A DNA stretch of 10,018 bases from positions 1-10,018 of the forward strand of contig CAZHPN010000206.1 in assembly GCA_964534375.1 (NCBI GenBank). The letters are read 5' to 3'. The notes beneath the pieces are model-generated. The model ran no database searches. It was not told the origin of the DNA and was given only the letters and a program-made list of their open reading frames with translations. This DNA comes from an uncultured bacterium. Lineage in GTDB: Bacteria; Lernaellota; Lernaellaia; Lernaellales; Lernaellaceae. The position numbers were made by a program, and so were the translations under genes. This document shows positions 1-10,018 of this stretch, piece after piece; within the stretch, counting starts at the first letter, position 1; each line of letters begins with the position of its first letter.

Positions 1-1039
1 CGGCGCGCCGGATCAGCGCCGCCTCGACGAAATCGTGGCTCAGGATGTGCCCGCCGAACGGCGGTTTGCCGCGCAGTTCGGGCAGCCCCGCGGCCGACAT
101 GAACGCGCGCGTGCGAACGATTGCGTTATGGCCCCAAAACGTGGCCTCGCGGCCGGTCCACCAGGCGAGCCCGCGACCGAGCAACGGGCCGTAAACCGAG
201 CCCGCGAATTGCTGTATCCGGGCCATCAGCGTCGTGCCCCGGTGCAGGCTTGGCATGGTCTGGATCAGCCCGGCATCCGGGTCGGCTTCCATGCGGCGCG
301 CCAGTTCCACGACGGTCGCGCCGTCCATCAGGCTGTCGGCGTCGAGCATTAGCAAATGATCGTAACGGCTGCCCCAGCGCTCGCAGAAATCCTGGATATT
401 GCCGGATTTATGGGCCGTGTTGCGCAACCGCCGGCGATAATACACGCGCATCGACCCGGCCAACCGCCGGCGGAGCGTCCACACCGCCTCTTGTTCCGCT
501 CGCGCGACGTCGCCGTCGGTCGTGTCGCTGAGAATGAAAATATCGAACGAACCGCTCTCGCCAAGCGCCGCGATTCCGTGCGCCATTGCATCGAGCGCTG
601 CGGCGACGCGGGCGGCGTCCTCATTGTATGTCGGCATCAAGACCGCGGTGCGGCTCGACAGCGGCTCGGGGTTCGACGACTTCCGCCGCCGCCGAAACAT
701 GCTGCGCAAGAGACCGACGACGGACATCACAAACGGGAACGTGATCCACGTAATGTTGATCGCGAAAAGCACGAGGATCAGCATTTCGTCGGCGGACAGG
801 CCGTTGACGGACAACACCAGGCGCATCTCGTTGACGAGCAGCGCGGCGAGCACGACCGACGTTCCCAGCACCGAAAAGCGGCGCCAGCGCTCGGTCCGTG
901 TCGCCAACCTGCGGCGGACGGACTTGTCGAACCGCTTGAACTCCTGAGCGGGCATCGGCGCCGGCGTTTCCGGCGGCATGCCCGGCGCTTCTGGCTCCAT
1001 CGTCGGCGCGGCGCCGAAGTCGTTCAGGGCTTCGTCCAT
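1..1039 (-). CDS. mdoH: Glucans biosynthesis glucosyltransferase H (GT2 family), C-terminal part beyond the left window edge
   Basis: Not in the ORF track because no stop lies in the window; translated by hand. Starts MDEALNDFGAAPTMEPEAPGMPPETP and has two TM segments, then TAVLMPTYNED, DIFILSD, YYRRR..N.AHKSGNI.DFC.RWG, LMLDADSLM, AGLIQT, FWGHNAI.R and FGGHILSHDFVEAALIRRA, all hallmark MdoH/OpgH motifs. The ATG at 1039 overlaps the mdoG 3' end; an alternative in-frame ATG is at 1000. Confidence 0.96.
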   Translation of the reverse strand, partial: MDEALNDFGAAPTMEPEAPGMPPETPAPMPAQEFKRFDKSVRRRLATRTERWRRFSVLGTSVVLAALLVNEMRLVLSVNGLSADEMLILVLFAINITWITFPFVMSVVGLLRSMFRRRRKSSNPEPLSSRTAVLMPTYNEDAARVAAALDAMAHGIAALGESGSFDIFILSDTTDGDVARAEQEAVWTLRRRLAGSMRVYYRRRLRNTAHKSGNIQDFCERWGSRYDHLLMLDADSLMDGATVVELARRMEADPDAGLIQTMPSLHRGTTLMARIQQFAGSVYGPLLGRGLAWWTGREATFWGHNAIVRTRAFMSAAGLPELRGKPPFGGHILSHDFVEAALIRRA

Positions 1040-2607
1040 CGGTAAAGCCAAACCTCCGCCTTCCGACCGTCGTCGTATTTCAGGTCGACGCGAAGTTCGG
1101 ACAATTCCGTGTTTTCCGGGTCGAACACGAAGGTGACGCGATCGCCGTGCGTGAGCGGGTTGTCGCTGACGACCACGTTGCTGATTTTCCCGGCCGACGC
1201 GGCGACCGCCGCGTGGGGCAACGGACTTCGCCGGCCGTGCGGCGCAACGTTGGGCGAATAGTCGATGACGAAGCGGCGCACCGGCGTCGGGGCAAGCGGG
1301 TCCGCGCGGCCGTGGGCGGTCGCAATGACGCGAACGTGGTCGCTCGCGGCCTTCGGTTCCTCGCCCCAGGACAAACGGTAGCTTTGGCGTAGCTCCGCGC
1401 CCGTCCGGATGATTTCCTTGGAACGCCAAAAGGCCACGATGTTGTCGTGTATTTCGGCATCGGACGGTATTTCCACGAGAATCACCGAACCGGGGCCCCA
1501 GTCGCCGACCGGCTCGACCCACAAACTCGGCCGACGTTCGAATTGCTGCTCGAAATCTTGATAGTCGGCCGGGTTCCGATCGCGTTGCATGAGGCCGAAA
1601 CCCTGCGGCGCGTGGTCCCCGAACGCGCTGAGTTGCAGCAACGCGGGGTTGGCGAGCGGGCGCCAGATGTGCTCGCCGCGGCCGTTGAAGATGAGCAGGC
1701 CGTCGGAATCGTGGATTTGCGGCCGGAAGTCATCGGCCTTCCGGCGGCCGTTGAACGAGAACATGAACATGCTATTTCCGGGCGCGATGCCGATCTCGTC
1801 GAGGTCAACTCGCGGGAAGAGCACGGACTGCACATCCATGATCGTGTTCGCGCCGGGCTGAATGGCGAAGCGGAAGGCGCCCGAGACGCTCGGGCCGTCG
1901 AGCAGCGCGTGTACGACGACGGTCGTGCTCGATCGCGCGGGCTCTTCGATCCAGAACGCGCGGAAAATCACAAACTCCTCGCCCTTCGGGTCGCCCGTGC
2001 GCATCGCGAGGCCGCGCGCCGACAGCCCGTAACCCTGATTGCGCCCGACGGCGCGAAAATAGCTGGCGCCCTGGAAGACCGCGAACTCGTCGAAAAGGCG
2101 CGGCTTGTTGATCTGGAACTGCAGACGAATGCCGGAAAAACCGATGTCCTTCGCCGGCAGCGGGCCGGGCGCGACCTTGCCTGTGGTGAACATCTCCGGT
2201 CGGAACGCGACGTGCGTGGCCCTGCCATCTTTGACGAGCGCGATCTCCACCGCGGCGTTAAAAAGGTACCCGACCGGCAGAAGTTGCAACCGGAACCGGC
2301 TGCCGGGTTTGGTCCAGAATGTGGCCGACGGCGCGACGCGGATGTCGCGGTATTGGTCGTAATTCAGCTTGTCGATCGGCGGCGGCAGCGCCGTGTTTGG
2401 CGGCGCATAGGGCGACTTTGACAGCTTGCGGGCAATCTCGACGACGGTGCTCGCGTCGAATGCGCCGCTGCGTGCGTAGGTCGGGTCCGCATTGGCGCGC
2501 GATGAAAACAGCATGATCGACGCAACGGCGACGACGATCGTGGCCATACGCCGGCCGGAAAGTCGACCGTCGCCGCAGGAGAAGTTGTTTGCGGCCCGTT
2601 CCAACAT
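1024..2607 (-). CDS. mdoG: Periplasmic glucan biosynthesis protein G (MdoG/OpgG-OpgD family)
   Basis: Motifs LNYDQYRDIR, FQGASYFRA.G..Q.YGLSARGLA, GEEF..F.AFW, DDFRPQIHDSDGL, WRPL.NP, GFGLMQR.R, ERRPSLWVEP.GDWG.G, EIHDNIVAFW and EVWLYRWT. N-terminal signal peptide ends ANA|DP. The ATG at 2607 is preferred over 2619 because GGGAGG lies just upstream. It precedes mdoH as in the canonical operon. Confidence 0.95.
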   Translation of the reverse strand: MLERAANNFSCGDGRLSGRRMATIVVAVASIMLFSSRANADPTYARSGAFDASTVVEIARKLSKSPYAPPNTALPPPIDKLNYDQYRDIRVAPSATFWTKPGSRFRLQLLPVGYLFNAAVEIALVKDGRATHVAFRPEMFTTGKVAPGPLPAKDIGFSGIRLQFQINKPRLFDEFAVFQGASYFRAVGRNQGYGLSARGLAMRTGDPKGEEFVIFRAFWIEEPARSSTTVVVHALLDGPSVSGAFRFAIQPGANTIMDVQSVLFPRVDLDEIGIAPGNSMFMFSFNGRRKADDFRPQIHDSDGLLIFNGRGEHIWRPLANPALLQLSAFGDHAPQGFGLMQRDRNPADYQDFEQQFERRPSLWVEPVGDWGPGSVILVEIPSDAEIHDNIVAFWRSKEIIRTGAELRQSYRLSWGEEPKAASDHVRVIATAHGRADPLAPTPVRRFVIDYSPNVAPHGRRSPLPHAAVAASAGKISNVVVSDNPLTHGDRVTFVFDPENTELSELRVDLKYDDGRKAEVWLYRWTKP

Positions 2608-2689
2608 GCGCCCTCCCATTGCCCGGAGACTTCGTCAAGTTTCGCGAGCGACTGGCGCTCGTCGCCGCTGCCTCCGAAACGCCGGTTTG

Positions 2690-2800: not shown

Positions 2801-2840
2801 AAAGAAAAACCCCCTGTTTCCATAATAGATTCAGGGGGTT
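2801..2840 (-). terminator. Rho-independent terminator downstream of the tRNA 3' fragment
   Basis: Minus strand reads AACCCCCTG-(15 nt)-CAGGGGGTT followed by TTTCTTT: a perfect 9-bp inverted repeat (2808-2816/2832-2840) plus a U-tract. Confidence 0.75.
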
Positions 2841-2847
2841 ACAGTTG

Positions 2848-2889
2848 CGCGGCTGGAGGGATTTGAACCCCCGGCCGACGGATTCGTAG
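2848..2889 (-). other. Attachment site (att core): 3' half of tRNA-Arg(ACG), not a complete tRNA
   Basis: Minus strand CTACGAA-TCCGT-CGGCC-GGGGG-TTCAAAT-CCCTC-CAGCCGC-G gives the anticodon loop (ACG), 3' anticodon strand, variable loop, T arm, 3' acceptor strand and discriminator. The upstream AAGCC cannot pair with TCCGT, and there is no D arm or 5' acceptor strand. The integrase stop codon is 4 nt away. Confidence 0.9.
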
Positions 2890-2893
2890 GGCT

Positions 2894-4015
2894 TCATCTT
2901 GGGACCGGATTCTTGTTTCCTTTCGATACGTTAGTCCGCATGGCCAAAACTGCTTTGACAATGGTTTGACAAGACGGCAGCTTGCCAATCTCGCGGATCA
3001 GGTCGGCATCAGTGACGCGCACGTACCGCTCCTGCACCGACCGCGCAAACGCCAAGTCGCGGCCGTGGCCCATTAAAACCTTACGGTAAATCTCATCGAC
3101 GCCGGCGCGGAGTAGTTCATTATGGAAAGCGGCGCGAAGATCGTGAATACGGAAATATCCGCCATCGCGTTGGGCGGCGCGAAACCCATTCGAGATGCCG
3201 AAGATTTTGCGGCCGTGATACGTCAGTACCGGCCCCTTGCCGCTCTCTGGACGCTCGCCGAGGGCCGCCCACAAGCCTTCACGAATCGGCACGCGGCCGA
3301 CCCTCTTGCGCGAAGCTGCCTGTTCCTGGGTCGGATAGATGATGCCGTCGTTCGTGATTTGCGCCCAATCCAAACCGATGATTGCGGCGCGCCGCAGTCC
3401 GGTGAAACGGGCGATCAAGAACAGACGACGGACGTGCTCGGATCGGCCGGCGCAGACGCGCAGCAAGTCATTGTCGGAAATTTCGCGCTCGATGACCGAT
3501 GGTTCCGGCAACGCCTTCAAGTACAGACAAGGATTGTGCGGCGGGTTGAGCCGTCCGGTACGAATTCCGAAGGTGTAGATCGCGGACAGCAGGGCCATTT
3601 CACGATTTACCGTCGCCGGCGCGATCAGACGGCCGTGTGTCCCTGTTTCCTTCGCGCGTTTGGCCTGATAGCGCACGGCCGCGTCAAGTTGCACGGCCCT
3701 GGCCGGAACTGCGCCAAAAAACTTTTTCAATTTTTCGGCACGCCAAACGTCGTCCGAGTAACTTTTCTTGGTCAACTTGGAATGTTTTAGGTATTCGTCG
3801 GCGAGCGCGTGGAACGTGAGCGCGCCGCCCGCGGCAACGCCAAGCAAAACCTCATCCTGCATTTCGGAAATCAGCTTGCGCTCGCGCGCTTCCGTCCATT
3901 TTCTGTTTCGATAGACGACTTCGCGCAGTCGTCGCGTGTGGCCGTCGCGCGTGATCGAAACGTCAATCTGCCAGCCGTGCCGACCATCGGGGGATTTGTA
4001 CGGACGAATCGGCAC
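2894..4015 (-). CDS. Tyrosine recombinase / phage integrase (373 aa)
   Basis: Arm-binding-type N-terminus (GWQIDVSI..GHTRRLRE), core-binding APATVNREMALLSAIY, and catalytic motifs TGLRR, HDLR, MGH and ERY. GTG start preceded by GGAG; abuts the att site. Confidence 0.95.
   Translation of the reverse strand: MPIRPYKSPDGRHGWQIDVSITRDGHTRRLREVVYRNRKWTEARERKLISEMQDEVLLGVAAGGALTFHALADEYLKHSKLTKKSYSDDVWRAEKLKKFFGAVPARAVQLDAAVRYQAKRAKETGTHGRLIAPATVNREMALLSAIYTFGIRTGRLNPPHNPCLYLKALPEPSVIEREISDNDLLRVCAGRSEHVRRLFLIARFTGLRRAAIIGLDWAQITNDGIIYPTQEQAASRKRVGRVPIREGLWAALGERPESGKGPVLTYHGRKIFGISNGFRAAQRDGGYFRIHDLRAAFHNELLRAGVDEIYRKVLMGHGRDLAFARSVQERYVRVTDADLIREIGKLPSCQTIVKAVLAMRTNVSKGNKNPVPR
2954..2972. repeat. 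Tandem direct repeat TTTGACAA x2, putative integrase arm-type binding sites
   Basis: TTTGACAA at 2954-2961 and 2965-2972 (11-bp period), about 65 bp inside the att core and within the integrase 3' end. Confidence 0.55.
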
Positions 4016-4062
4016 CGTTCACTCCATTCAGGCGGGGAATGGTAGAAGCCGCTCCCCGTCTG

Positions 4063-4650
4063 TTATTTTTTCGTGAAGTTGGTCCAGCGACCAACGATCT
4101 TAATAAGTCGTGCGCCTTTCGGAACATGACGCAACTCACCTCCGTCAATAGGATGAATCAGGCTTTTTCCTTTAAGCAGGAAACCGACAACGGCAAAGTC
4201 ATCATCGACGCAAAGCACCAGATCGCCGACTTTGGCGTTGTCAGATGGAACACAAGTGTATTCGTTTTCCCCCTCAGTGTAGACGAATGGCATATTCGGA
4301 ACCCCCCCCGCCCTGATGGCATGTGCATCCACCTTCGCTGTTTTGTCGTTTCGACGGGGAGCGACTTCACCGATTAACGCAAACGGTTCGAGGTTCAGTT
4401 TTTTCTCGACTACGGCAAGAGCTTCATGCGAGCAGCCGGCAGGACCGGCAAGAAACCAATCGGCCGGTATGCCCGTACAGGCGGCGATTTTGGGGACATG
4501 ACGCGCAGATGGGGCCGTGTCGTCACGATACCACGCATAGATTGTCGAGGCGGCCATGCCAGATTCACGCGCAAATTTGGCAACGCGGCCGTGGCCCCCG
4601 CCATACAGCGCCGTAATTGCTTGGTCGATTCTGGCTAAAATCTCATTCAT
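4063..4650 (-). CDS. CI-like repressor: XRE-family HTH plus degenerate S24/LexA-like C-terminal domain
   Basis: HTH segment VAKFARESGMAASTIYAWYRDDTAPSARHVPKIAACTGIPADWFL. The C-terminal region echoes S24 (LIGEVA.., VGDLVL, IKIVGR). It is divergent from the early operon and upstream of the integrase. ATG at 4650; in-frame TTG at 4656. Confidence 0.8.
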   Translation of the reverse strand: MNEILARIDQAITALYGGGHGRVAKFARESGMAASTIYAWYRDDTAPSARHVPKIAACTGIPADWFLAGPAGCSHEALAVVEKKLNLEPFALIGEVAPRRNDKTAKVDAHAIRAGGVPNMPFVYTEGENEYTCVPSDNAKVGDLVLCVDDDFAVVGFLLKGKSLIHPIDGGELRHVPKGARLIKIVGRWTNFTKK

Positions 4651-4730
4651 AATCAAATACTTATTGAATAATGAAGAAAGCCGTAAAATTCTTGTTGACT
4701 AAATTAGAGATTTCCATAATTATAAACCCC
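4651..4730. promoter_or_regulatory. AT-rich divergent control region (genetic switch) with a rightward promoter
   Basis: Very AT-rich relative to the flanks. TTGACT (4695-4700)-N17-AATTAT (4718-4723) on +. Palindromes TTATT-G-AATAA (4661-4671) and ATAATTAT (4716-4723). Confidence 0.7.
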
Positions 4731-4790
4731 ATGAAAACCCGCAAATCAGTCAAAACCAGCAAAACCAGCAACCGAGCGACGCTACCATGA
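4731..4790 (+). CDS. Putative 19-aa basic leader peptide / uORF (MKTRKSVKTSKTSNRATLP)
   Basis: The ATG lies 7 nt after the predicted -10 box. Its TGA overlaps the next ATG (ATGA 4787-4790), and the downstream gene has no clear SD. Confidence 0.45.
   Translation: MKTRKSVKTSKTSNRATLP
4751..4768 (+). repeat. 9-bp tandem repeat CAAAACCAG x2 with degenerate flanking copies
   Basis: 4733-4776 reads gaaaacccg caaatcagt caaaaccag caaaaccag caaccgag. Confidence 0.7.
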
Positions 4791-5083
4791 CCAGTGAACT
4801 TTTGTCCACCGGCGAAGTCGCAAGCCTTTTCGGCGTGTCGATTCCCACGATTCACAACTGGATCGCCGCCGGCCACCTGACGCCGGCGCACACGACCCCA
4901 GGCCGGCAACTCCGCTTCGATCGCTTGACGGTTATTGCCTTTCTTCATCGTCAATCTCGTCAACAAGGCGCGGCGGGTCGAGATTCCGCAATCGCAATCG
5001 AAGCGCCAGCCGACCCGACCCCGGCCCCGCCAGCATCGCCACCAGACGATCAAACGGAAGTTGAGGCCGCAGCAAATGCGTAA
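4787..5083 (+). CDS. Excisionase/BldC-like (HTH_17, truncated-MerR) DNA-binding protein at the cro position
   Basis: LLSTGEVASLFGVSIPTIHNWIAAGHL....TPGRQLRF is a typical truncated-MerR winged HTH, followed by a Pro/Ala/acidic low-complexity tail. Confidence 0.85.
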   Translation: MTSELLSTGEVASLFGVSIPTIHNWIAAGHLTPAHTTPGRQLRFDRLTVIAFLHRQSRQQGAAGRDSAIAIEAPADPTPAPPASPPDDQTEVEAAANA

Positions 5084-5360
5084 ACCCCTCGGCGGCATCG
5101 GCAATCTTGAGCCGCGCTTTCTCTCGGTCGATGGCGCGGTCATTTACAGCGGTCTGCCCCGTACTCAAATCCTCGACCTCGTGGCGCAGGGCGTTCTCAC
5201 GCACAAACGCAACGCCGCGCCCGACCCTCACTATTTCACTCGCGGCGGCAAGGGCCGGAAGGCTGGCGCAATCCTGATCTGCAAACAAAGCCTCGACGGC
5301 TTTCTTGATTCGCTTCCGGCGTATGGCGGCGCGACCGCTGCGGGTGGTTCTCATGCTTGA
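5076..5360 (+). CDS. Second excisionase/AlpA-like HTH protein (94 aa)
   Basis: Frame of ORF 4935..5360 with the start moved to ATG 5076 (GAGG upstream, ATGCGTAA overlap with the previous stop). PRFLSVDGAVIYSGLPRTQILDLVAQGVL...ILICKQSLDGFLDSLP resembles excisionases. Confidence 0.7.
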   Translation: MRKPLGGIGNLEPRFLSVDGAVIYSGLPRTQILDLVAQGVLTHKRNAAPDPHYFTRGGKGRKAGAILICKQSLDGFLDSLPAYGGATAAGGSHA

Positions 5361-5931
5361 CTTACATCACGAAACGCCGCGCCGGCCAATTATTACTTTT
5401 TCCGAAAGTGATAATCGGTCCTGGGAACTGCTCGCCGAGCTAATCGGGTCGGTTCGCGGAAAAAGCGCGACGTTCGCCCGCGCGATGAAAATTTCGGTTT
5501 CCCTCGTCCACAAATGGATCGAGCCGCCCGCGTCGGCGGAATCCCCCTACGGTTCGGGCGCGATCAACCCGCTTGATCGTATCGCGCAAATTTGCGCGGT
5601 GCTGACCAGCGACGGCCAACAAGAGCGCGCCGTCGAAACGGTGCGGTGGCTGGCGGCGCGCGTCGGTTGTCGCGTCGAGCGAATCCGGCCGGCGTCGGGC
5701 GAAATCGAAACGGTAATCCTCGAAACCCTCACGCTCGCCGCGAACAGCGGCGACGTGGTTTCCGCGGTGCGCGCGGCCCTGGCCGAGCAGCGGATTGACG
5801 CGAGGGCGGCGCGGGCGATCTTCGCGCGCCTTGACGCACTACACGAAGAAACCGAGGCGGTGCGGCGCTGCATCGAACTGCACGTCGCGGACAGCAGCGC
5901 CGGCCGGAAAACGAGGCGCGCCAATGGATGA
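5353..5931 (+). CDS. Phage regulatory protein, CII-like (186 CII/CP76-type), 192 aa
   Basis: ATG 5353 overlaps the previous stop (ATGCTTGA). HTH-like FARAMKISVSLVHKWIEP, then GAINPLDRI, VRWLAARVG and a helical C-terminus GDVV.AVRAALAEQRID. Position is typical of cII. Confidence 0.6.
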   Translation: MLDLHHETPRRPIITFSESDNRSWELLAELIGSVRGKSATFARAMKISVSLVHKWIEPPASAESPYGSGAINPLDRIAQICAVLTSDGQQERAVETVRWLAARVGCRVERIRPASGEIETVILETLTLAANSGDVVSAVRAALAEQRIDARAARAIFARLDALHEETEAVRRCIELHVADSSAGRKTRRANG

Positions 5932-6016
5932 CCGGGAACTCGTGAAAGAAATCATTTTCGGCGCGCTCTTTTTCGGCGCGATCTGCGCGGGCGTGATTGC
6001 GGTGTTTTCACTATGA
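5924..6016 (+). CDS. Small single-pass membrane protein (30 aa, MDDRELVKEIIFGALFFGAICAGVIAVFSL)
   Basis: GAGG at 5913-5916. Overlaps the upstream stop (ATGGATGA) and the downstream start (ATGA), exactly filling the gap. About 21 hydrophobic residues. Confidence 0.65.
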   Translation: MDDRELVKEIIFGALFFGAICAGVIAVFSL

Positions 6017-6471
6017 CAACCCCGCGCTGTCCCGATCATCATTACACGACCCTAAACACGCTGGTCGCGGTCCTGGCGTTGTCCGTTGCCGTTGTCGGCG
6101 GGTGCGCGCAAATCCTCAATCATTACAAAAGCCCTCCACAATTCAGCGCGCCCGCCGTCATCGTCAACGCCTCGCCCTCCCCCTCGTGCGCGGCCCCGAC
6201 CTACTACGTCGAACGGCCGGCGACCATCCACGACCCGACCACGCTCAAAGCCATCGCCGACTACAAAAAGACGGCGGCGTACAAGCGCGGCCGGGCCGAA
6301 CTTGAAGGACAACTATTTTTTGCCCTGCGTCCCATCGGGGGCCGGTGCAAATCCGCCGCTGAGAAATTCCAAGGCGCGAGCGCCGCGTACTACGTTTTTG
6401 CGTATTGCGGCGGGCGGGGCAACTCTCTAACACCCAGGACCGGAAAGGAGATACCGTGGAAAAAATCTTGA
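6013..6471 (+). CDS. Hypothetical membrane-anchored or secreted protein (152 aa), possible lipoprotein
   Basis: ATGA-coupled start. Hydrophobic LVAVLALSVAVVGG followed by Cys, then a Pro/Ser-rich linker. The 3' end overlaps the nuclease start. Confidence 0.55.
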   Translation: MTTPRCPDHHYTTLNTLVAVLALSVAVVGGCAQILNHYKSPPQFSAPAVIVNASPSPSCAAPTYYVERPATIHDPTTLKAIADYKKTAAYKRGRAELEGQLFFALRPIGGRCKSAAEKFQGASAAYYVFAYCGGRGNSLTPRTGKEIPWKKS

Positions 6472-7604
6472 CCAGTTATTCTATGTGGCGAGTTTTCGCC
6501 AACTGCCGCAAAAAGGCGTACTGGCGCTATATTCGCAACCTCGTGCCAATCACGCGCGACAAGAATCTCGACTTCGGCACGGTCATCCATTCCGCGCTCG
6601 ACCTTTGGCACGGCGGCGTCGGCATTGCCGCGGTGCGCAGTTTCCTGCGTGCGGAGTACGGGCGCGCCGTTGCCGGGCGAAATCCCCTCGACTACGCGAA
6701 AGCCCTGGCAATGGTTGACGGCTACGCGCGGCGTTATCCCGAAGGGTCCGAGCCGTTCAAGGTGGTCGCTCTTGAGCGCGTTTTCCGCGGCGACATTCAC
6801 AACCCCGCGACGGGCGCGTGCAGCCGCAAACTCGACCTCGGCGGCAAGGTGGACGGCCTCGTGCAGACCCAGGACGGCCGTTATTGGCTGCTGGAACACA
6901 AGACGGCGACGAACCCCGATGGCTCTTACCTCGAAAACCTCTGGACGGATTTTCAGATCACGCTCTACAGCTATTATGTGCAAAAGCTGTTCGGCGTGAA
7001 CCTGTCCGGCGTGCTTTACAACATTCTCGCCAAGAACAAGTTGCAGCAGCGCGCGGGCGAAACCGAAGCCGAATACCAAATCCGTTACGCGGACCTCTGC
7101 TCGAAAAACAAGAGCGGCAAATCGACGGCAACGCGCAACATGCCCGAAACCGACGACGAGTTTGCCGCTCGGCTGGCGACGTGGCACGGCGACTCCGGCG
7201 CGTATATCCGGCAGGAAATTCTCATTTCGCAAGATCGGTTCACTCTCGTCGCCGGCGAACTTTGGGAACTGACGCAGACCTTCCTCGATTGTCGCCGCCG
7301 CGGCGCGTGGTTCCAAAACCCCGGCCAATGCTTCGGGAAATTCGGCCAAAAATGCGAATACTTCGCGCTCTGCTCGTCGGGCGACAGCCCCGTTGTGATG
7401 GGAAACCAGTATTGCCACCAAGACCCGCACGAAGAATTGCGCGAATCGCTCGGAATCGCGGAAAACAACCCGTTCCTGAATGACGCGGCGGGCGCGGTGG
7501 TCGATCTCGCAGACGACGCCCTTTTCGCTGACGAACTCGCCGCCCTCGACGGCGCAATCCCCAACAATGGCGGCGGCGACACGGCCGCGGCCCTCACGTT
7601 CTAA
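6456..7604 (+). CDS. PD-(D/E)XK exonuclease, Cas4/AddB/RecB-like (PDDEXK_1), probable 4Fe-4S (382 aa)
   Basis: GTG 6456 with AAGGAG SD. Motifs LTSYS...FANCRKK.Y.RY, FGTVIHSAL, E, GKVDGLV, LLEHKT and QITLY, plus C-terminal C-x7-C-x5-C (CFGKFGQKCEYFALC). Acidic tail. Confidence 0.9.
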   Translation: MEKILTSYSMWRVFANCRKKAYWRYIRNLVPITRDKNLDFGTVIHSALDLWHGGVGIAAVRSFLRAEYGRAVAGRNPLDYAKALAMVDGYARRYPEGSEPFKVVALERVFRGDIHNPATGACSRKLDLGGKVDGLVQTQDGRYWLLEHKTATNPDGSYLENLWTDFQITLYSYYVQKLFGVNLSGVLYNILAKNKLQQRAGETEAEYQIRYADLCSKNKSGKSTATRNMPETDDEFAARLATWHGDSGAYIRQEILISQDRFTLVAGELWELTQTFLDCRRRGAWFQNPGQCFGKFGQKCEYFALCSSGDSPVVMGNQYCHQDPHEELRESLGIAENNPFLNDAAGAVVDLADDALFADELAALDGAIPNNGGGDTAAALTF

Positions 7605-7629
7605 CGAACAAACGAAGGACGAAAAAACC

Positions 7630-8436
7630 ATGACGCAAACACCCGAAACGGCAATCCCGAACCCGCCAGCGGGCGGCAATGGCGCGCCGGGGCCGGCAGC
7701 GCCCCCGGCGAAAGCGTCGTTCACGCTCCCCACGGCCAAGACCGCGCCGAAAAGCGCCTTCGCGGACCTAACGACGTTCGTGTACGGCCCCCCGAAAATC
7801 GGCAAAAGCACCCTCGCGTCGCAGTTCCCCGGCGCGCTGTTCCTGGCGACCGAGGCGGGGCTGAACCACCTGGAAACGTATCAAATCCCCATTAGTTCTT
7901 GGGACGACTTCATCCGTGCGTGCGCGTTGATCCTCCAAGGAAAACACGAATTCCGCACGATCGTCATTGACACAGCCGACAACCTCTATCGCTACTGCAC
8001 GGACCAAATATGCAAGAAGCACGGCGTCGAAACCGTGGGCGACATTGCCGGGTTCGGCAAGGGCTTCGCGCTCTTGAACAACGAATTTCATCGCGTTCTG
8101 ACCAAGCTGACGCAGTTGCCGTATGGCCTCGTGCTGATCTCGCACAGCAAGCAGATCGAACTCGAAGATCGCGGCGGCAAATACAATAAGACGGTCCCGA
8201 CCCTGCCGGAAGGGGCGCGCAAGACGGTTCTCGGCATGGCTGACGTGATTCTCTACTGCACGCAGACGACGGGGCGCAACGAGGCCAACGAGCCGGTCGA
8301 GCAGCGCGTCATCATCACCAAACCCTCGCGGTTGTGGGAAGCGGGCGACCGGACGGGGCGGTTGCCCGAAGTGATGCCTCTCGATTTCCAAGCGTTCAAA
8401 GCGGCATGGCTCGCCTCGGCCGCGAAAAAACAATAA
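7630..8436 (+). CDS. AAA_24-family P-loop ATPase (Sak4-like phage recombinase/annealase), 268 aa
   Basis: Walker A YGPPKIGKST, FLATE.G, Walker B TIVIDT, FGKGF, LVLISH, MADVILY and EAGDR. ATG 7630 follows an A-rich leader containing AAGGA. Confidence 0.88.
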   Translation: MTQTPETAIPNPPAGGNGAPGPAAPPAKASFTLPTAKTAPKSAFADLTTFVYGPPKIGKSTLASQFPGALFLATEAGLNHLETYQIPISSWDDFIRACALILQGKHEFRTIVIDTADNLYRYCTDQICKKHGVETVGDIAGFGKGFALLNNEFHRVLTKLTQLPYGLVLISHSKQIELEDRGGKYNKTVPTLPEGARKTVLGMADVILYCTQTTGRNEANEPVEQRVIITKPSRLWEAGDRTGRLPEVMPLDFQAFKAAWLASAAKKQ

Positions 8437-8464
8437 CGAACAGACGAAGAAAGGCTAAACGAAC

Positions 8465-8983
8465 ATGACGGAAGCAAACGCAGACATCGACATCACGGCC
8501 GAACTCGCCAACATGGACGACGATTTCGACCAGCAAGAAGTGAGCGACAACCCGAACGACACGGTGCCCGACGGCCCCTATCAGGTGCGTGTCGTGAAAG
8601 CGGAACTCGGCCGCACGCAAGAGCGGAACGTGCCGATCCTCAAATGGCAGCTTCGCGTGTTGAGCGGCCCGCACGCGAAACGGCTGATTTTCCGCCACAA
8701 CCTCATCGAGAGCAAAGAAAACGTGAAGTGGCTGAAACAGGACTTGCACACCGCGGGGTTGGACCTGACGAAGCTGCACGAGTTGGCGGACCGCATCAAT
8801 GAATTGTTCGGCGTGACGCTGGACGTGAAAGTCACGACGAAAGGCCAATTCACGAACGTCTTTCTGCTGCGCCGCATCGTCGTCGCGGACGCCCCCGAAG
8901 ACGGTTTCGGGTTCGGCCACAACGCCGCGGCCGGCGCGGGAAGCCCCCCACCGACCAACGACGCCCTCGACGCCGTGTTCTAG
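8465..8983 (+). CDS. DUF669-family protein (putative phage single-stranded DNA-binding protein)
   Basis: VPDGPYQVRVVKAEL, ILKWQLRVLSG.HAKRLIF, LDVKV...GQFTNVF. Flexible acidic tail ending DALDAVF. Follows the Sak4-like ATPase as commonly seen. Confidence 0.8.
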   Translation: MTEANADIDITAELANMDDDFDQQEVSDNPNDTVPDGPYQVRVVKAELGRTQERNVPILKWQLRVLSGPHAKRLIFRHNLIESKENVKWLKQDLHTAGLDLTKLHELADRINELFGVTLDVKVTTKGQFTNVFLLRRIVVADAPEDGFGFGHNAAAGAGSPPPTNDALDAVF

Positions 8984-8986
8984 GCG

Positions 8987-9036
8987 CGGTCCCTCACGGT
9001 GCGCCCTGCGGCGGCGGGGCGCGCCGCGGGCGACCG
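8987..9036 (+). repeat. Long GC-rich stem-loop immediately after the DUF669 stop codon
   Basis: Arms 8987-9009 and 9014-9036 pair at 21 of 23 positions (3 G-U) with a 4-nt loop and no U-tract. Confidence 0.7.
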
Positions 9037-9065
9037 ACCACCACAACACGACCACCGAGGAAAAT

Positions 9066-9533
9066 ATGACACAACAAGCAGGACAAGAATGCGACGGCGA
9101 ACCTTTCACTTTTATCTGCGACACGCGCGAGCGCCAGCCTTACGGATTCTCCGCGCGCACAACCTTGAAAGCCCTTGACGCGGGCGATTACTCGGTTGTC
9201 GGCCACGAGGCCGAAATCGCGGTCGAGCGCAAAAGCCTCGACGACTTCGTGAACACGGTGATCCGCGCCCGCGCGCGATTCCACGACGAACTAAAAAAAC
9301 TCGCGCGTTACCGCTTCGCGTGCATCGTCGTCGAAGCCAGTTTTCAGGACATTTTGAGCGAGGGCTACACCAGCGGCGCCACCGGCTTTTCCGTCGCCCA
9401 GGCGGCAATGTCGATCATCGTCGATTGGCATGTGCCGATCTTCTTTTGCGGAGATCGCCAGGGCGCGCGGGAATTTACCACCATGTTTTTGCAGCGCGCC
9501 GTTCAAGCCATCCGGGGCAAAAACAACCAATGA
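9066..9533 (+). CDS. Stand-alone ERCC4/XPF/Mus81-domain nuclease (155 aa)
   Basis: ICDTRE.QPY, LDAGDYS, IAVERKSLDDF, RFHDEL and IVVEA match the ERCC4 D-x-R-E and GD-xn-ERK-x3-D signature. GAGG SD. Confidence 0.9.
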   Translation: MTQQAGQECDGEPFTFICDTRERQPYGFSARTTLKALDAGDYSVVGHEAEIAVERKSLDDFVNTVIRARARFHDELKKLARYRFACIVVEASFQDILSEGYTSGATGFSVAQAAMSIIVDWHVPIFFCGDRQGAREFTTMFLQRAVQAIRGKNNQ

Positions 9534-10018
9534 CCAGACGCGCCGCCAAGCCAACCAAGCCCTTGCACGAGCAAACGTCGATCACCGGGACGGTCGAGCG
9601 CATTTATTTCTCGTCGCCCACGTTCTCGGCCGGCGTGCTGCGCGACGACGACACCGGCGCGACCCTCAAGTTTTCGGGCAAATTCGCGGCGGCGGAAAAC
9701 GACGCGCTCGTGTTGACCGGCGAATGGACGACCCATGAAAAATACGGGCGGCAATTTACCGCGACCCTCGCAACACGCAACACGGCCCTGTCGGGCGCGG
9801 GCCTCGCGGCCTATCTCGAAAAGTCGCCGGCGTTCAAAGGCATCGGGCCGGTCAAGAGCAAAATAATCGCCCTGCGCTACGGCGCGCAATTCGCGGAAAT
9901 CATCGTTGCCGACCCGGCGCGCGTGGCGCGCGAGTGCAAAATCCCGATCCCCGTCGCGTTCGCCCTGTCGGCCGAATGGAAAAAGCATCACGCGGTCAAT
10001 GCCCTGGCGACACAGCTT
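9530..10018 (+). CDS. RecD2-like ATP-dependent DNA helicase, N-terminal part (runs off the window)
   Basis: Not in the ORF track; translated by hand from the ATGA overlap. SITGTVERIYFSSPTFSAGVL...LVLTGEWTTHEKYGRQF...LAAYLEKSPAFKGIGPVKSKII matches the RecD2 N-terminus and its HhH motif. Open for 163 codons to the edge; helicase motifs are not visible. Confidence 0.85.
   Translation, partial: MTRRAAKPTKPLHEQTSITGTVERIYFSSPTFSAGVLRDDDTGATLKFSGKFAAAENDALVLTGEWTTHEKYGRQFTATLATRNTALSGAGLAAYLEKSPAFKGIGPVKSKIIALRYGAQFAEIIVADPARVARECKIPIPVAFALSAEWKKHHAVNALATQL

Follow-up and report, generated by a model that had tools for sequence, protein, structure and literature searches.

A five-gene cassette of a predicted prophage unites Sak4 and DUF669 proteins with a minimal ERCC4-type nuclease and RecD2 and probably serves recombination and replication

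The lambda Red, RecET and Sak4-SSB annealing modules (SSB: single-stranded DNA-binding protein) are the basis of recombineering. The Sak4 family was defined by Lopes et al. 2010 (PMC2896510), and in phage HK620 the Sak4 protein was described as an annealase stimulated by its partner SSB, which belongs to the DUF669 family (Hutinet et al. 2018, PMC5928155). That DUF669 is a family of SSBs has also been argued (PMC4889955). In the Pseudomonas phage Phi47, the DUF669 protein Gp63 and the Sak4-like protein Gp64 were reported to repair CRISPR-cut phage DNA (Zhu et al. 2026, PMC13687109), and in the same study a helicase and an exonuclease with a Cas4 domain were recovered in pull-downs of Gp63. Here we describe a five-gene cassette that contains related proteins, located on a contig of an uncultured Lernaellota bacterium (CAZHPN010000206.1, assembly GCA_964534375.1). 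This contig of 10,018 bases, one of 381 in the genome, was analysed as a whole and is called the window hereafter. Within positions 6456-10018, five genes of the + strand encode a Cas4-like iron-sulfur (Fe-S) exonuclease, a Sak4 protein, a DUF669 protein, an ERCC4-type nuclease and a RecD2 helicase. We consider it likely that they form a phage cassette for recombination and replication, in which the ERCC4 protein would act as the branch or flap nuclease.

The comparison with HK620 revealed a shared core, as both loci carry a core-only Sak4 beside a DUF669 SSB in a temperate-phage early region, with the same Pfam and PHROGs families. However, HK620 is described as pairing this duo with Abc2, a hijacker of RecBCD, rather than with an exonuclease of its own (PMC5928155), whereas the window cassette brings its own Fe-S exonuclease together with ERCC4 and RecD2. 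The 'Healer' pair of Phi47 is likewise similar in that Gp63 and Gp64 are adjacent and lie near the Cas4-domain exonuclease Gp61 and the helicase Gp60. The gene order reported for Phi47 is helicase, exonuclease, an intervening gene, SSB and Sak4, so that the Sak4-DUF669 order of the window is reversed with respect to gp63-gp64. Phi47 further differs by a RusA-like resolvase, Gp11, encoded elsewhere, and by the lack of any ERCC4 protein in its published description (the text of PMC13687109 never uses the term 'ERCC4'). Related cases may be present in the supplements of that paper, which tabulate gene neighbourhoods for 152 phages with DUF669. The Sak4-DUF669 pair was therefore already known, as were four of the five parts together, partly characterised in Phi47. 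What is new is a widespread five-gene cassette fixed with a minimal XPF-type nuclease and RecD2, and the exchange of ERCC4 and RusA in one slot. A literature search that left most subscription journals outside its reach found no publication combining ERCC4 with Sak4, DUF669 or AAA_24 and none joining ERCC4, bacteriophage and RecD2; papers retrieved with ERCC4 and prophage, judged by title and abstract start, did not concern this cassette. Among 50,697 cultured-phage records searched with tblastn (E 1e-5), no example of the five-gene cassette was found.

All five proteins passed the curated Pfam cut-offs (Table 1), and PHROGs labelled them exonuclease, Sak4-like annealing protein, SSB, ERCC4-type nuclease and exonuclease V, respectively. 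Successive genes are separated by 25, 28 and 82 nucleotides, while the last two share a 4-nucleotide ATGA overlap. The exonuclease gene starts with a GTG codon at 6456, preceded by an AAGGAG box 8 nucleotides upstream. A first-pass annotation, made by a model from the sequence alone, had proposed five co-oriented genes here, closely spaced or overlapping, and had listed their motifs; the coordinates, the motifs and their conservation, and all five family assignments were confirmed. The catalytic residues are intact across the five proteins. Chance resemblance or a gene-calling artefact was ruled out by the profile scores, motif conservation and synteny.

Table 1. Features of the window, with the cassette genes first and the upstream features after them.
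Feature	Position	Strand	Size and evidence
Cas4/RecB-family PD-(D/E)XK exonuclease	6456..7604	+	382 aa (amino acids); PDDEXK_1 59.5 bits vs 22
Sak4-type core-only RecA-like ATPase	7630..8436	+	268 aa; AAA_24 154.8 bits vs 27
DUF669 phage SSB	8465..8983	+	172 aa; DUF669 52 bits vs 21
Minimal ERCC4 nuclease domain	9066..9533	+	155 aa; ERCC4 56.8 bits vs 24
RecD2 SF1B helicase, first 163 codons of 761	9530..10018 (contig end)	+	OB_YrrC 40 bits
opgG/opgH-like host genes, left of integrase	2-2619		MdoG 587 bits for 1024-2619 (Pfam)
Tyrosine integrase, prophage edge	2894..4015	-	phrog_1 integrase, E 1e-34
CI-like repressor (HTH_3), divergent from early operon	4063..4656	-	HTH_3 23.8 bits vs 23
Cro/Xis-like small helix-turn-helix (HTH) protein, opens rightward operon	4787..5083	+	HTH_17 40.5 bits vs 27
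CII-like regulator	5305..5931	+	phrog_101 'CII-like transcriptional activator', E 1.5e-6
Small 152-aa open reading frame between CII-like gene and exonuclease	6013..6471	+	translation

The RecD2 frame runs off the end of the contig, and this is an assembly break. A viral contig, L005, begins at window position 2803, is 100% identical to window 2803-10018 and runs past the window into another contig of the same genome, C319, at 99.9% identity. In L005 the RecD2 gene is whole, as a single open gene of 761 amino acids. The truncation of RecD2 beyond the window, which the first-pass annotation had allowed for, is thus a matter of the contig end and not of the element. The last 25 bases of the window (9994-10018) match the end of C319 (L003; positions 3840-3864) with one synonymous difference. 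Copies of the C-terminal part of the downstream primase, 69% identical, were present on contigs C371 and C224, and related elements in the sample may for this reason have broken the assembly. The part of RecD2 located on C319 contains HHH_RecD2, AAA_30, SH3_13 and UvrD_C_2 domains. The protein scored 521.9 bits against the equivalog model TIGR01448 helicase_RecD2 (cut-off 500) and matched Deinococcus radiodurans RecD2 (3E1S) with an E value of 6e-59, and its helicase motifs were invariant in 21 sequences. Contig C3 of the genome (about 28749-30719) carries another RecD2-like gene, which shows 31% identity over residues 63-735 and is probably the chromosomal copy. The presence of this divergent gene on another contig indicates that the RecD2 of the cassette is an extra, element-borne copy, and not the housekeeping gene. 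A tblastn search of cultured phages with RecD2 gave 904 records, the best of those listed being about 32% identical or less, and the Sak4 search gave 364 records, all below 60% identity. The RecD2 of Bacillus subtilis has been reported to prefer forked DNA and to work with SsbA (PMC12143592, PMC8989531), and YrrC (RecD2) was listed in the interactome of the SSB C-terminus (PMC3000357).

The ERCC4 protein was compared with its characterised relatives. In an alignment of 29 sequences, D19, R21, E22, G40, D41, Y42, E54, R55, K56, D60 and E90 were invariant, and the GDY...ERKxxxD active-site motif was intact throughout. Profile comparison gave E 3.6e-15 with the nuclease of Pyrococcus furiosus Hef (1J22) and 2e-8 with Aeropyrum pernix XPF. 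A structural model of high predicted quality (pLDDT, predicted local distance difference test, 93) had 1J22/1J24 as its top fold matches (TMt 0.76-0.78), followed by A. pernix XPF and Mus81. The archaeal Hef and XPF proteins (1J22-1J25; 2BGW/2BHN) therefore share with the window protein both the fold and the GDXnERKX3D signature, but the latter is encoded by a predicted bacterial virus and consists of the nuclease domain alone, with no fused helicase; in the model, this domain is followed by one long C-terminal helix without an (HhH)2 domain. Scores against the NCBIfam equivalogs were 43.8 for Hef (cut-off 610) and 43 for Xpf (cut-off 300). Since the protein has 155 amino acids, contains only the nuclease domain and falls far under these cut-offs, we regard it as a minimal relative and not as a Hef or XPF orthologue. 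A search for ERCC4 fusions among proteins of 273-2000 amino acids was negative, which is weak evidence; 12 longer representatives that were examined included one tandem ERCC4 and one HNH-ERCC4 arrangement, and 0/12 were fused to DUF669 or to a helicase. The tandem protein (P0101, 297 amino acids) shows two ERCC4 stretches in Pfam and is possibly a pseudo-dimer, no more than a hint as to a dimeric unit; the other (P0184, 310 amino acids) is an HNH_3-ERCC4 fusion. The ERCC4 profile retrieved 8821, 5308 and 1019 representatives (clustered at 50% identity) at E 1e-3, 1e-10 and 1e-30, respectively. In the cultured-phage records (tblastn, E 1e-5), relatives were limited to 18 records of haloarchaeal viruses, 30-42% identical; these ERCC4-bearing viruses are tailed. 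The one haloarchaeal neighbourhood inspected (L165, Halorubrum virus HRTV-27) was unlike the cassette, with no Sak4, DUF669 or RecD2 annotated.

We examined the conservation of the cassette in loci gathered by alignment of ERCC4 relatives, taking the 80 top-scoring of 351 confirmed viral matches and, likewise, the 80 top-scoring of 332 confirmed genomic matches. When these 160 loci were searched by tblastn with the window proteins, DUF669 was detected in 159, RecD2 in 155, Sak4 in 152 and the exonuclease in 141. All five genes were found in the same order and on the same strand in 116 of the 127 loci with room on both sides; the genes are thus co-conserved, a lack of co-conservation being what the first-pass annotation had named as grounds for its refutation. 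Five complete open reading frames were present in 121/160 loci, with a median span of 4948 bp, and these 121 loci fell into 23 RecD2 clusters at <75% identity. Among the 134 loci that extend far enough upstream, 133 had the Sak4 gene next to that of DUF669, an arrangement typical of the Sak4 family (PMC5928155). As a control, 55 loci were collected from distant ERCC4 relatives. Most of these did not have the cassette, as Sak4 was detected in 8 of them, DUF669 in 5 and the exonuclease in 4, which indicates that the synteny characterises one clade and does not stem from the method.

The five genes are not, however, a uniform innovation. Starting from Sak4, and counting only loci with at least 2.6 kb downstream, ERCC4 and RecD2 were each present in 33/35 loci when Sak4 identity to the window protein was at least 54%. 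At 48-54% identity ERCC4 was present in 14/20 and RecD2 in 11/20, at 40-48% in 3/14 and 5/14, respectively, and below 40% identity in 0/3. This decrease with Sak4 identity indicates that the exonuclease-Sak4-DUF669 trio is the wider core. The trio is older and more widely distributed, and the ERCC4-RecD2 pair is an add-on fixed in one sub-clade. Viewed from the Sak4 side, ERCC4 and RecD2 tend to come and go together, which raises the question of whether they are two subunits of one physical helicase-nuclease, that is, a split analogue of Hef built on an SF1B helicase and processing stalled or reversed forks. The two genes stood side by side in 139 of the 149 loci that extend far enough downstream, the RecD2 frame overlapped the ERCC4 stop codon in 146/155 loci, the nearest solved relative of the ERCC4 protein is the nuclease domain of Hef, itself a helicase-nuclease fusion, and a RecD2-like tblastn match, pointing to an SF1-like helicase nearby, was present in 16 of the 55 distant ERCC4 loci. 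However, tight overlaps are the norm throughout the operon (in several loci RecD2 and the primase overlap too) and hence not specific to the pair, and the search for fusions described above, weak evidence as it is, yielded no ERCC4-helicase protein, nor a helicase domain in any of the 12 longer representatives. In addition, three loci (L264, L265 and L267) carry a clade-level ERCC4 (39-54% identity, downstream of DUF669) with no RecD2 match; L264 extends only about 2 kb downstream, so that only L265 and L267 have room for RecD2. Structure prediction of an ERCC4-RecD2 complex scored 0.00 against a mark of 0.32, a result that gives no answer and speaks neither for nor against binding. Taken together, a physical two-subunit enzyme seems rather unlikely to us. 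In four loci (L036, L042, L055 and L153), 2.5-4.4 kb are inserted between ERCC4 and RecD2.

What occupies the slot after DUF669 in the absence of ERCC4 was inspected in seven hand-picked loci. RusA lies immediately 3' of DUF669 in three of them (L259, L260 and L261), one gene separates DUF669 from RusA in L279, and in L286 a UvrD-type helicase fills the slot with RusA further downstream. With local profiles, ERCC4 and RusA co-occurred in 0/295 loci, 271 having ERCC4 only, 6 RusA only and 18 neither. ERCC4 and RusA thus exchange in the same slot. The RusA-bearing sister cassettes (L259-L262, L279 and the Akkermansia phage Chambord, ON453894.1) have the same trio in the same operon position, followed by replication genes, but RusA stands in the place of ERCC4, and RecD2 is replaced by an 889-amino-acid protein, a D5-type primase-helicase or DnaB. 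In the viral sister cassettes, Sak4 is 48-52% identical to the Sak4 of the window. The order in the cultured phage Chambord is Sak4, exonuclease, two hypothetical genes, RusA, further genes and DnaB. Given the presence of RusA in the slot of sister cassettes and the absence of co-occurrence, ERCC4 is most likely the branch- or flap-cutting enzyme of the phage. The alternation of the two enzymes amounts to a natural experiment on which enzyme a phage needs after annealing, and it assigns to a defined pathway of bacterial viruses a nuclease of the XPF type, which is chiefly familiar from archaea and eukaryotes.

The surroundings of the cassette point to a temperate phage. The sequence from 2803 to 10018 appears to be the left arm of a temperate tailed phage integrated beside the opgGH-like genes, and the five genes its early operon, placed after the integrase, CI-like, Cro-like and CII-like genes. 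The G+C content is about 65% at the left of the window and 52-63% from about position 2500 onward. Protein clusters resembling the MdoG product came most often from Pseudomonadota, which is too weak a sign to name a host. Some of the upstream matches are weaker in Pfam than in PHROGs: Phage_integrase scored 23.6 bits for the integrase, under the cut-off of 27.1, Phage_CP76 scored 23 bits for the CII-like gene, under the cut-off of 26, and the Phage_CI_repr match of the CI-like gene was weak, its PHROGs families being transcriptional repressors. A promoter-like site, a consensus match only, was seen on the + strand at 4695-4723. On contig C319, RecD2 is followed by a gene for an AEP-TOTE and PriCT_2 primase of >677 amino acids with a P-loop. 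The same cassette was found in a related provirus of 61 kb, estimated by CheckV to be 100% complete, together with terminase, portal, head-protease, decoration and tail genes (PHROGs). In ten relatives, the flanks encoded LexA-like repressors, sigma-70-like proteins and serine recombinases with DUF2924, and a large primase or primase-helicase directly followed RecD2 in 7/10. The module is therefore not 'self-contained', as the first-pass annotation had it, but belongs to the operon that a temperate tailed phage would express early. The slot behind the cassette was typed in loci including L039, L087, L161, L128, L098 and L279 (after RecD2 or RusA). The primase-helicases in it belong to unrelated types, namely AEP-TOTE, DnaG-type of about 1100 amino acids, CHC2 zinc finger with DUF5906/D5, and NrS-1-like with D5_N. 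In L259-L261 it is filled by an 889-amino-acid protein without a Pfam match, and in L009, L013 and L033 the open reading frames after RecD2 had no Pfam family.

This position bears on two other explanations. In the first, ERCC4 and RecD2 would be a nuclease-helicase system of anti-phage defence, carried by the prophage as a moron. RecD-like helicases do occur in several defence models, and RecD2 matched typeIV_RecD (E 2.4e-62) and PDC-S68 in PADLOC. These are generic helicase models, however, whereas ERCC4, Sak4 and DUF669 matched no PADLOC 2.0 model and RecD2 passes its own equivalog cut-off; moreover, the genes of the pair stand within the early operon, flanked by those for the SSB and the primase-helicase, which is not a moron position, and the pair exchanges with RusA, a recombination enzyme. 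We therefore consider a defence system to be highly improbable. In the second, the cassette would have been selected mainly as counter-defence, as an extended 'Healer' that rebuilds phage DNA cut by CRISPR or restriction systems. The repair of CRISPR cuts had been guessed at in the first-pass annotation, and the guess has experimental backing for the DUF669 and Sak4-like pair of Phi47, which is reported to overcome CRISPR immunity by repairing the DNA once it has been cut, while the products of the adjoining helicase and Cas4-domain exonuclease genes co-purify with the SSB (PMC13687109). The window cassette has homologues of all four of these Phi47 proteins and a nuclease in addition. On the other hand, Sak4/Sak recombinases were reported to be required for replication of Staphylococcus aureus phages (PMC5499656), and the cassette occupies a replication slot beside the primase-helicase. 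The repair of host cuts and recombination-dependent replication cannot be separated by sequence, nor do the two roles exclude each other. Counter-defence as the main selective force is possible but on balance unlikely, and such a role would be compatible with a cassette for recombination and replication rather than opposed to it.

In the recombination-replication cassette that we favour, the Fe-S Cas4-like exonuclease would resect DNA ends 5'-3', the DUF669 SSB would coat the resulting 3' tails, and Sak4, stimulated by the SSB, would anneal these tails or pair them with homologous DNA. The minimal ERCC4 would cut the branched products (3' flaps, forks, nicked junctions), which would be the job of RusA in the sister cassettes, and RecD2, as a fork-preferring 5'-3' helicase, would remodel or unwind intermediates and pass them on to the primase-helicase encoded next to it. 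With its genes transcribed rightward beyond the CI/Cro/CII switch, such a pathway could serve genome circularisation, recombination-dependent replication, debranching before packaging and break repair, the last including host-nuclease cuts as shown for the DUF669 and Sak4-like 'Healer' pair. The chances that the detailed order of these steps is right are about even, and it is only by inference that the pathway runs step by step and independently of RecA and RecBCD.

Several points weigh against this reading. Every step of the mechanism was deduced from homology. The 160 loci are the best-scoring matches and not a random sample, and many of them are near-identical, so that the counts overstate the number of independent events. 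The hidden Markov model for RusA behind the exclusivity count was built from 5 sequences, 4 of which are close relatives, and the loci span only 7-8 kb on each side, so that a resolvase elsewhere in the genome would escape. In five ERCC4-bearing proviruses no Pfam match to RusA, RuvC or Endonuclease_7 was obtained; these negatives are weak, since the same route missed terminase and portal genes (found by PHROGs in one provirus) and the Endonuclease_7 control matched nowhere. The (HhH)2 domain, which aids dimerisation and DNA binding in XPF and Hef, is absent from the ERCC4 protein. Finally, XPF-family nucleases have flaps, forks and nicked junctions as their substrates, not intact Holliday junctions, and for this reason ERCC4 may not be a true equivalent of RusA.

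The exonuclease, Sak4 and DUF669 proteins were analysed in the same way. The exonuclease matched the exonuclease family phrog_1218 (E 6.6e-36), and in an alignment of 20 sequences the PD-(D/E)XK core (D133, E147-H148-K149) and the RecB-type QxxxY motif (Q167...Y171) were invariant. C17, C292, C300 and C306 were also invariant, and these four cysteines, one N-terminal and three C-terminal, are the putative ligands of a 4Fe-4S cluster. The C-terminal spacing is C-x7-C-x5-C in the window and C-x6-C-x5-C in relatives, and thus differs from the C-x2-C-x5-C of Cas4 and AddB. The PADLOC models of Cas4 gave only E 3e-4 with no significant stretch, so that the protein is not CRISPR-associated Cas4 proper, and no sequence match was found in the PDB; on these grounds we call it 'Cas4-like'. 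Sak4 matched phrog_124 'Sak4-like' (E 1.8e-51), with Walker A and B conserved in 23 sequences. The DUF669 protein matched SSB families of PHROGs. Its model had a pLDDT of 80 overall and of 93-97 for residues 41-140, and among solved structures the top match was PrgE of plasmid pCF10, an OB-fold protein that binds ssDNA (E 1.5e-4, TMt 0.57-0.61); SSBs came next, as weak matches. As modelled, the protein would consist of an OB-fold core and a disordered tail with an SSB-like tip. This tail ends in D-A-V-F in the window and in x-P-F in most relatives.

A terminal Phe after a mostly acidic tail was a recurrent feature of two of the five proteins. Among the 121 complete loci, it was present in 117 exonucleases (mostly ...P-x-F; window 7560-7604) and in 113 DUF669 proteins (mostly ...x-P-F; window 8940-8983). 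Both tails resemble the tip of bacterial SSB. Phe was not among the common end residues of Sak4, ERCC4 or RecD2 in the related loci. This distribution suggests that the exonuclease and DUF669 tails share a docking site on one partner. A more ambitious proposal can be built on it, in which the cassette would be a portable machine for break repair and annealing, with an XPF-type nuclease in place of RusA, joined to RecD2 as a split Hef, and with an order of action set by the Phe tails. The exonuclease and SSB tails would alternate on RecD2, Sak4 or the primase-helicase, thereby ordering resection, coating, annealing and cutting. Neither organising feature, the XPF-type nuclease in the place of RusA with an element-borne RecD2 or the paired Phe tails, was found described in the literature. 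Taken jointly, these elements make a doubtful proposal, the docking order included. If it were true, the cassette would be the counterpart, in bacterial viruses, of eukaryotic single-strand annealing with XPF-ERCC1, and could furnish a five-part 'extended Healer' for recombineering in phyla without genetic tools. Eukaryotic single-strand annealing proceeds through resection, RPA, Rad52 and then removal of 3' flaps by Rad1-Rad10/XPF-ERCC1. The logic is the same, with a flap nuclease of the same protein family, since an annealing protein acting on resected, SSB-coated ends would require an XPF-type nuclease to remove whatever stays unpaired, but the parallel is one of analogy: the eukaryotic annealer is Rad52, whereas that of the cassette would be an ATPase resembling Rad51 paralogues, and the parts are viral and minimal.

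We then considered the distribution of the cassette. By record titles, 45 of the 80 genomic loci belonged to Acidobacteriota-type taxa. Other titles named Planctomycetota, Myxococcota, several lineages of sulfate reducers (Desulfobacterota-type), Verrucomicrobiota-type taxa (Victivallales, Opitutus), Nitrospiraceae, Armatimonadota, Dehalococcoidia, Latescibacterota and Hydrogenedentales. Two of the carriers are available in culture, namely Desulfosarcina alkanivorans PL12 (locus L164) and Bryobacterales bacterium F-183 (locus L122), which makes the idea testable at the bench. Cassette-bearing prophage DNA was 94-98.5% identical over 12-16 kb among five loci (L124, L127, L131, L132 and L133) on contigs of 100 kb-2.6 Mb, entitled Desulfobacterium, Desulfatitalea, Nitrospiraceae, Candidatus Ozemobacter and Desulfosoma. 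Similarly, D. alkanivorans PL12 and a Gammaproteobacteria metagenome-assembled genome (L162/L164) were 92.6% identical over 12.3 kb. Such near-identical prophage DNA under distant taxon titles could reflect a broad host range, recent transfer, or an error of binning or labelling.

At the left edge of the predicted prophage, just past the integrase stop codon and where L005 begins, a 16-nucleotide inverted repeat with a 1-nucleotide loop (2808-2840) could act as a terminator or belong to the attachment region. No tRNA gene was found in the window when a tRNA integration site was sought, and internal terminator-like sites were rarer in the window than in shuffled sequences (7 against a mean of 10.1), a difference to which we attach no meaning. 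The 152-amino-acid frame upstream of the cassette shares 16 nucleotides with the start of the exonuclease gene and matched no family in Pfam, PHROGs, PADLOC or NCBIfam. Its N-terminus, judged by eye, resembles a signal sequence with a lipobox, and its product could be a surface or exclusion protein of the prophage.

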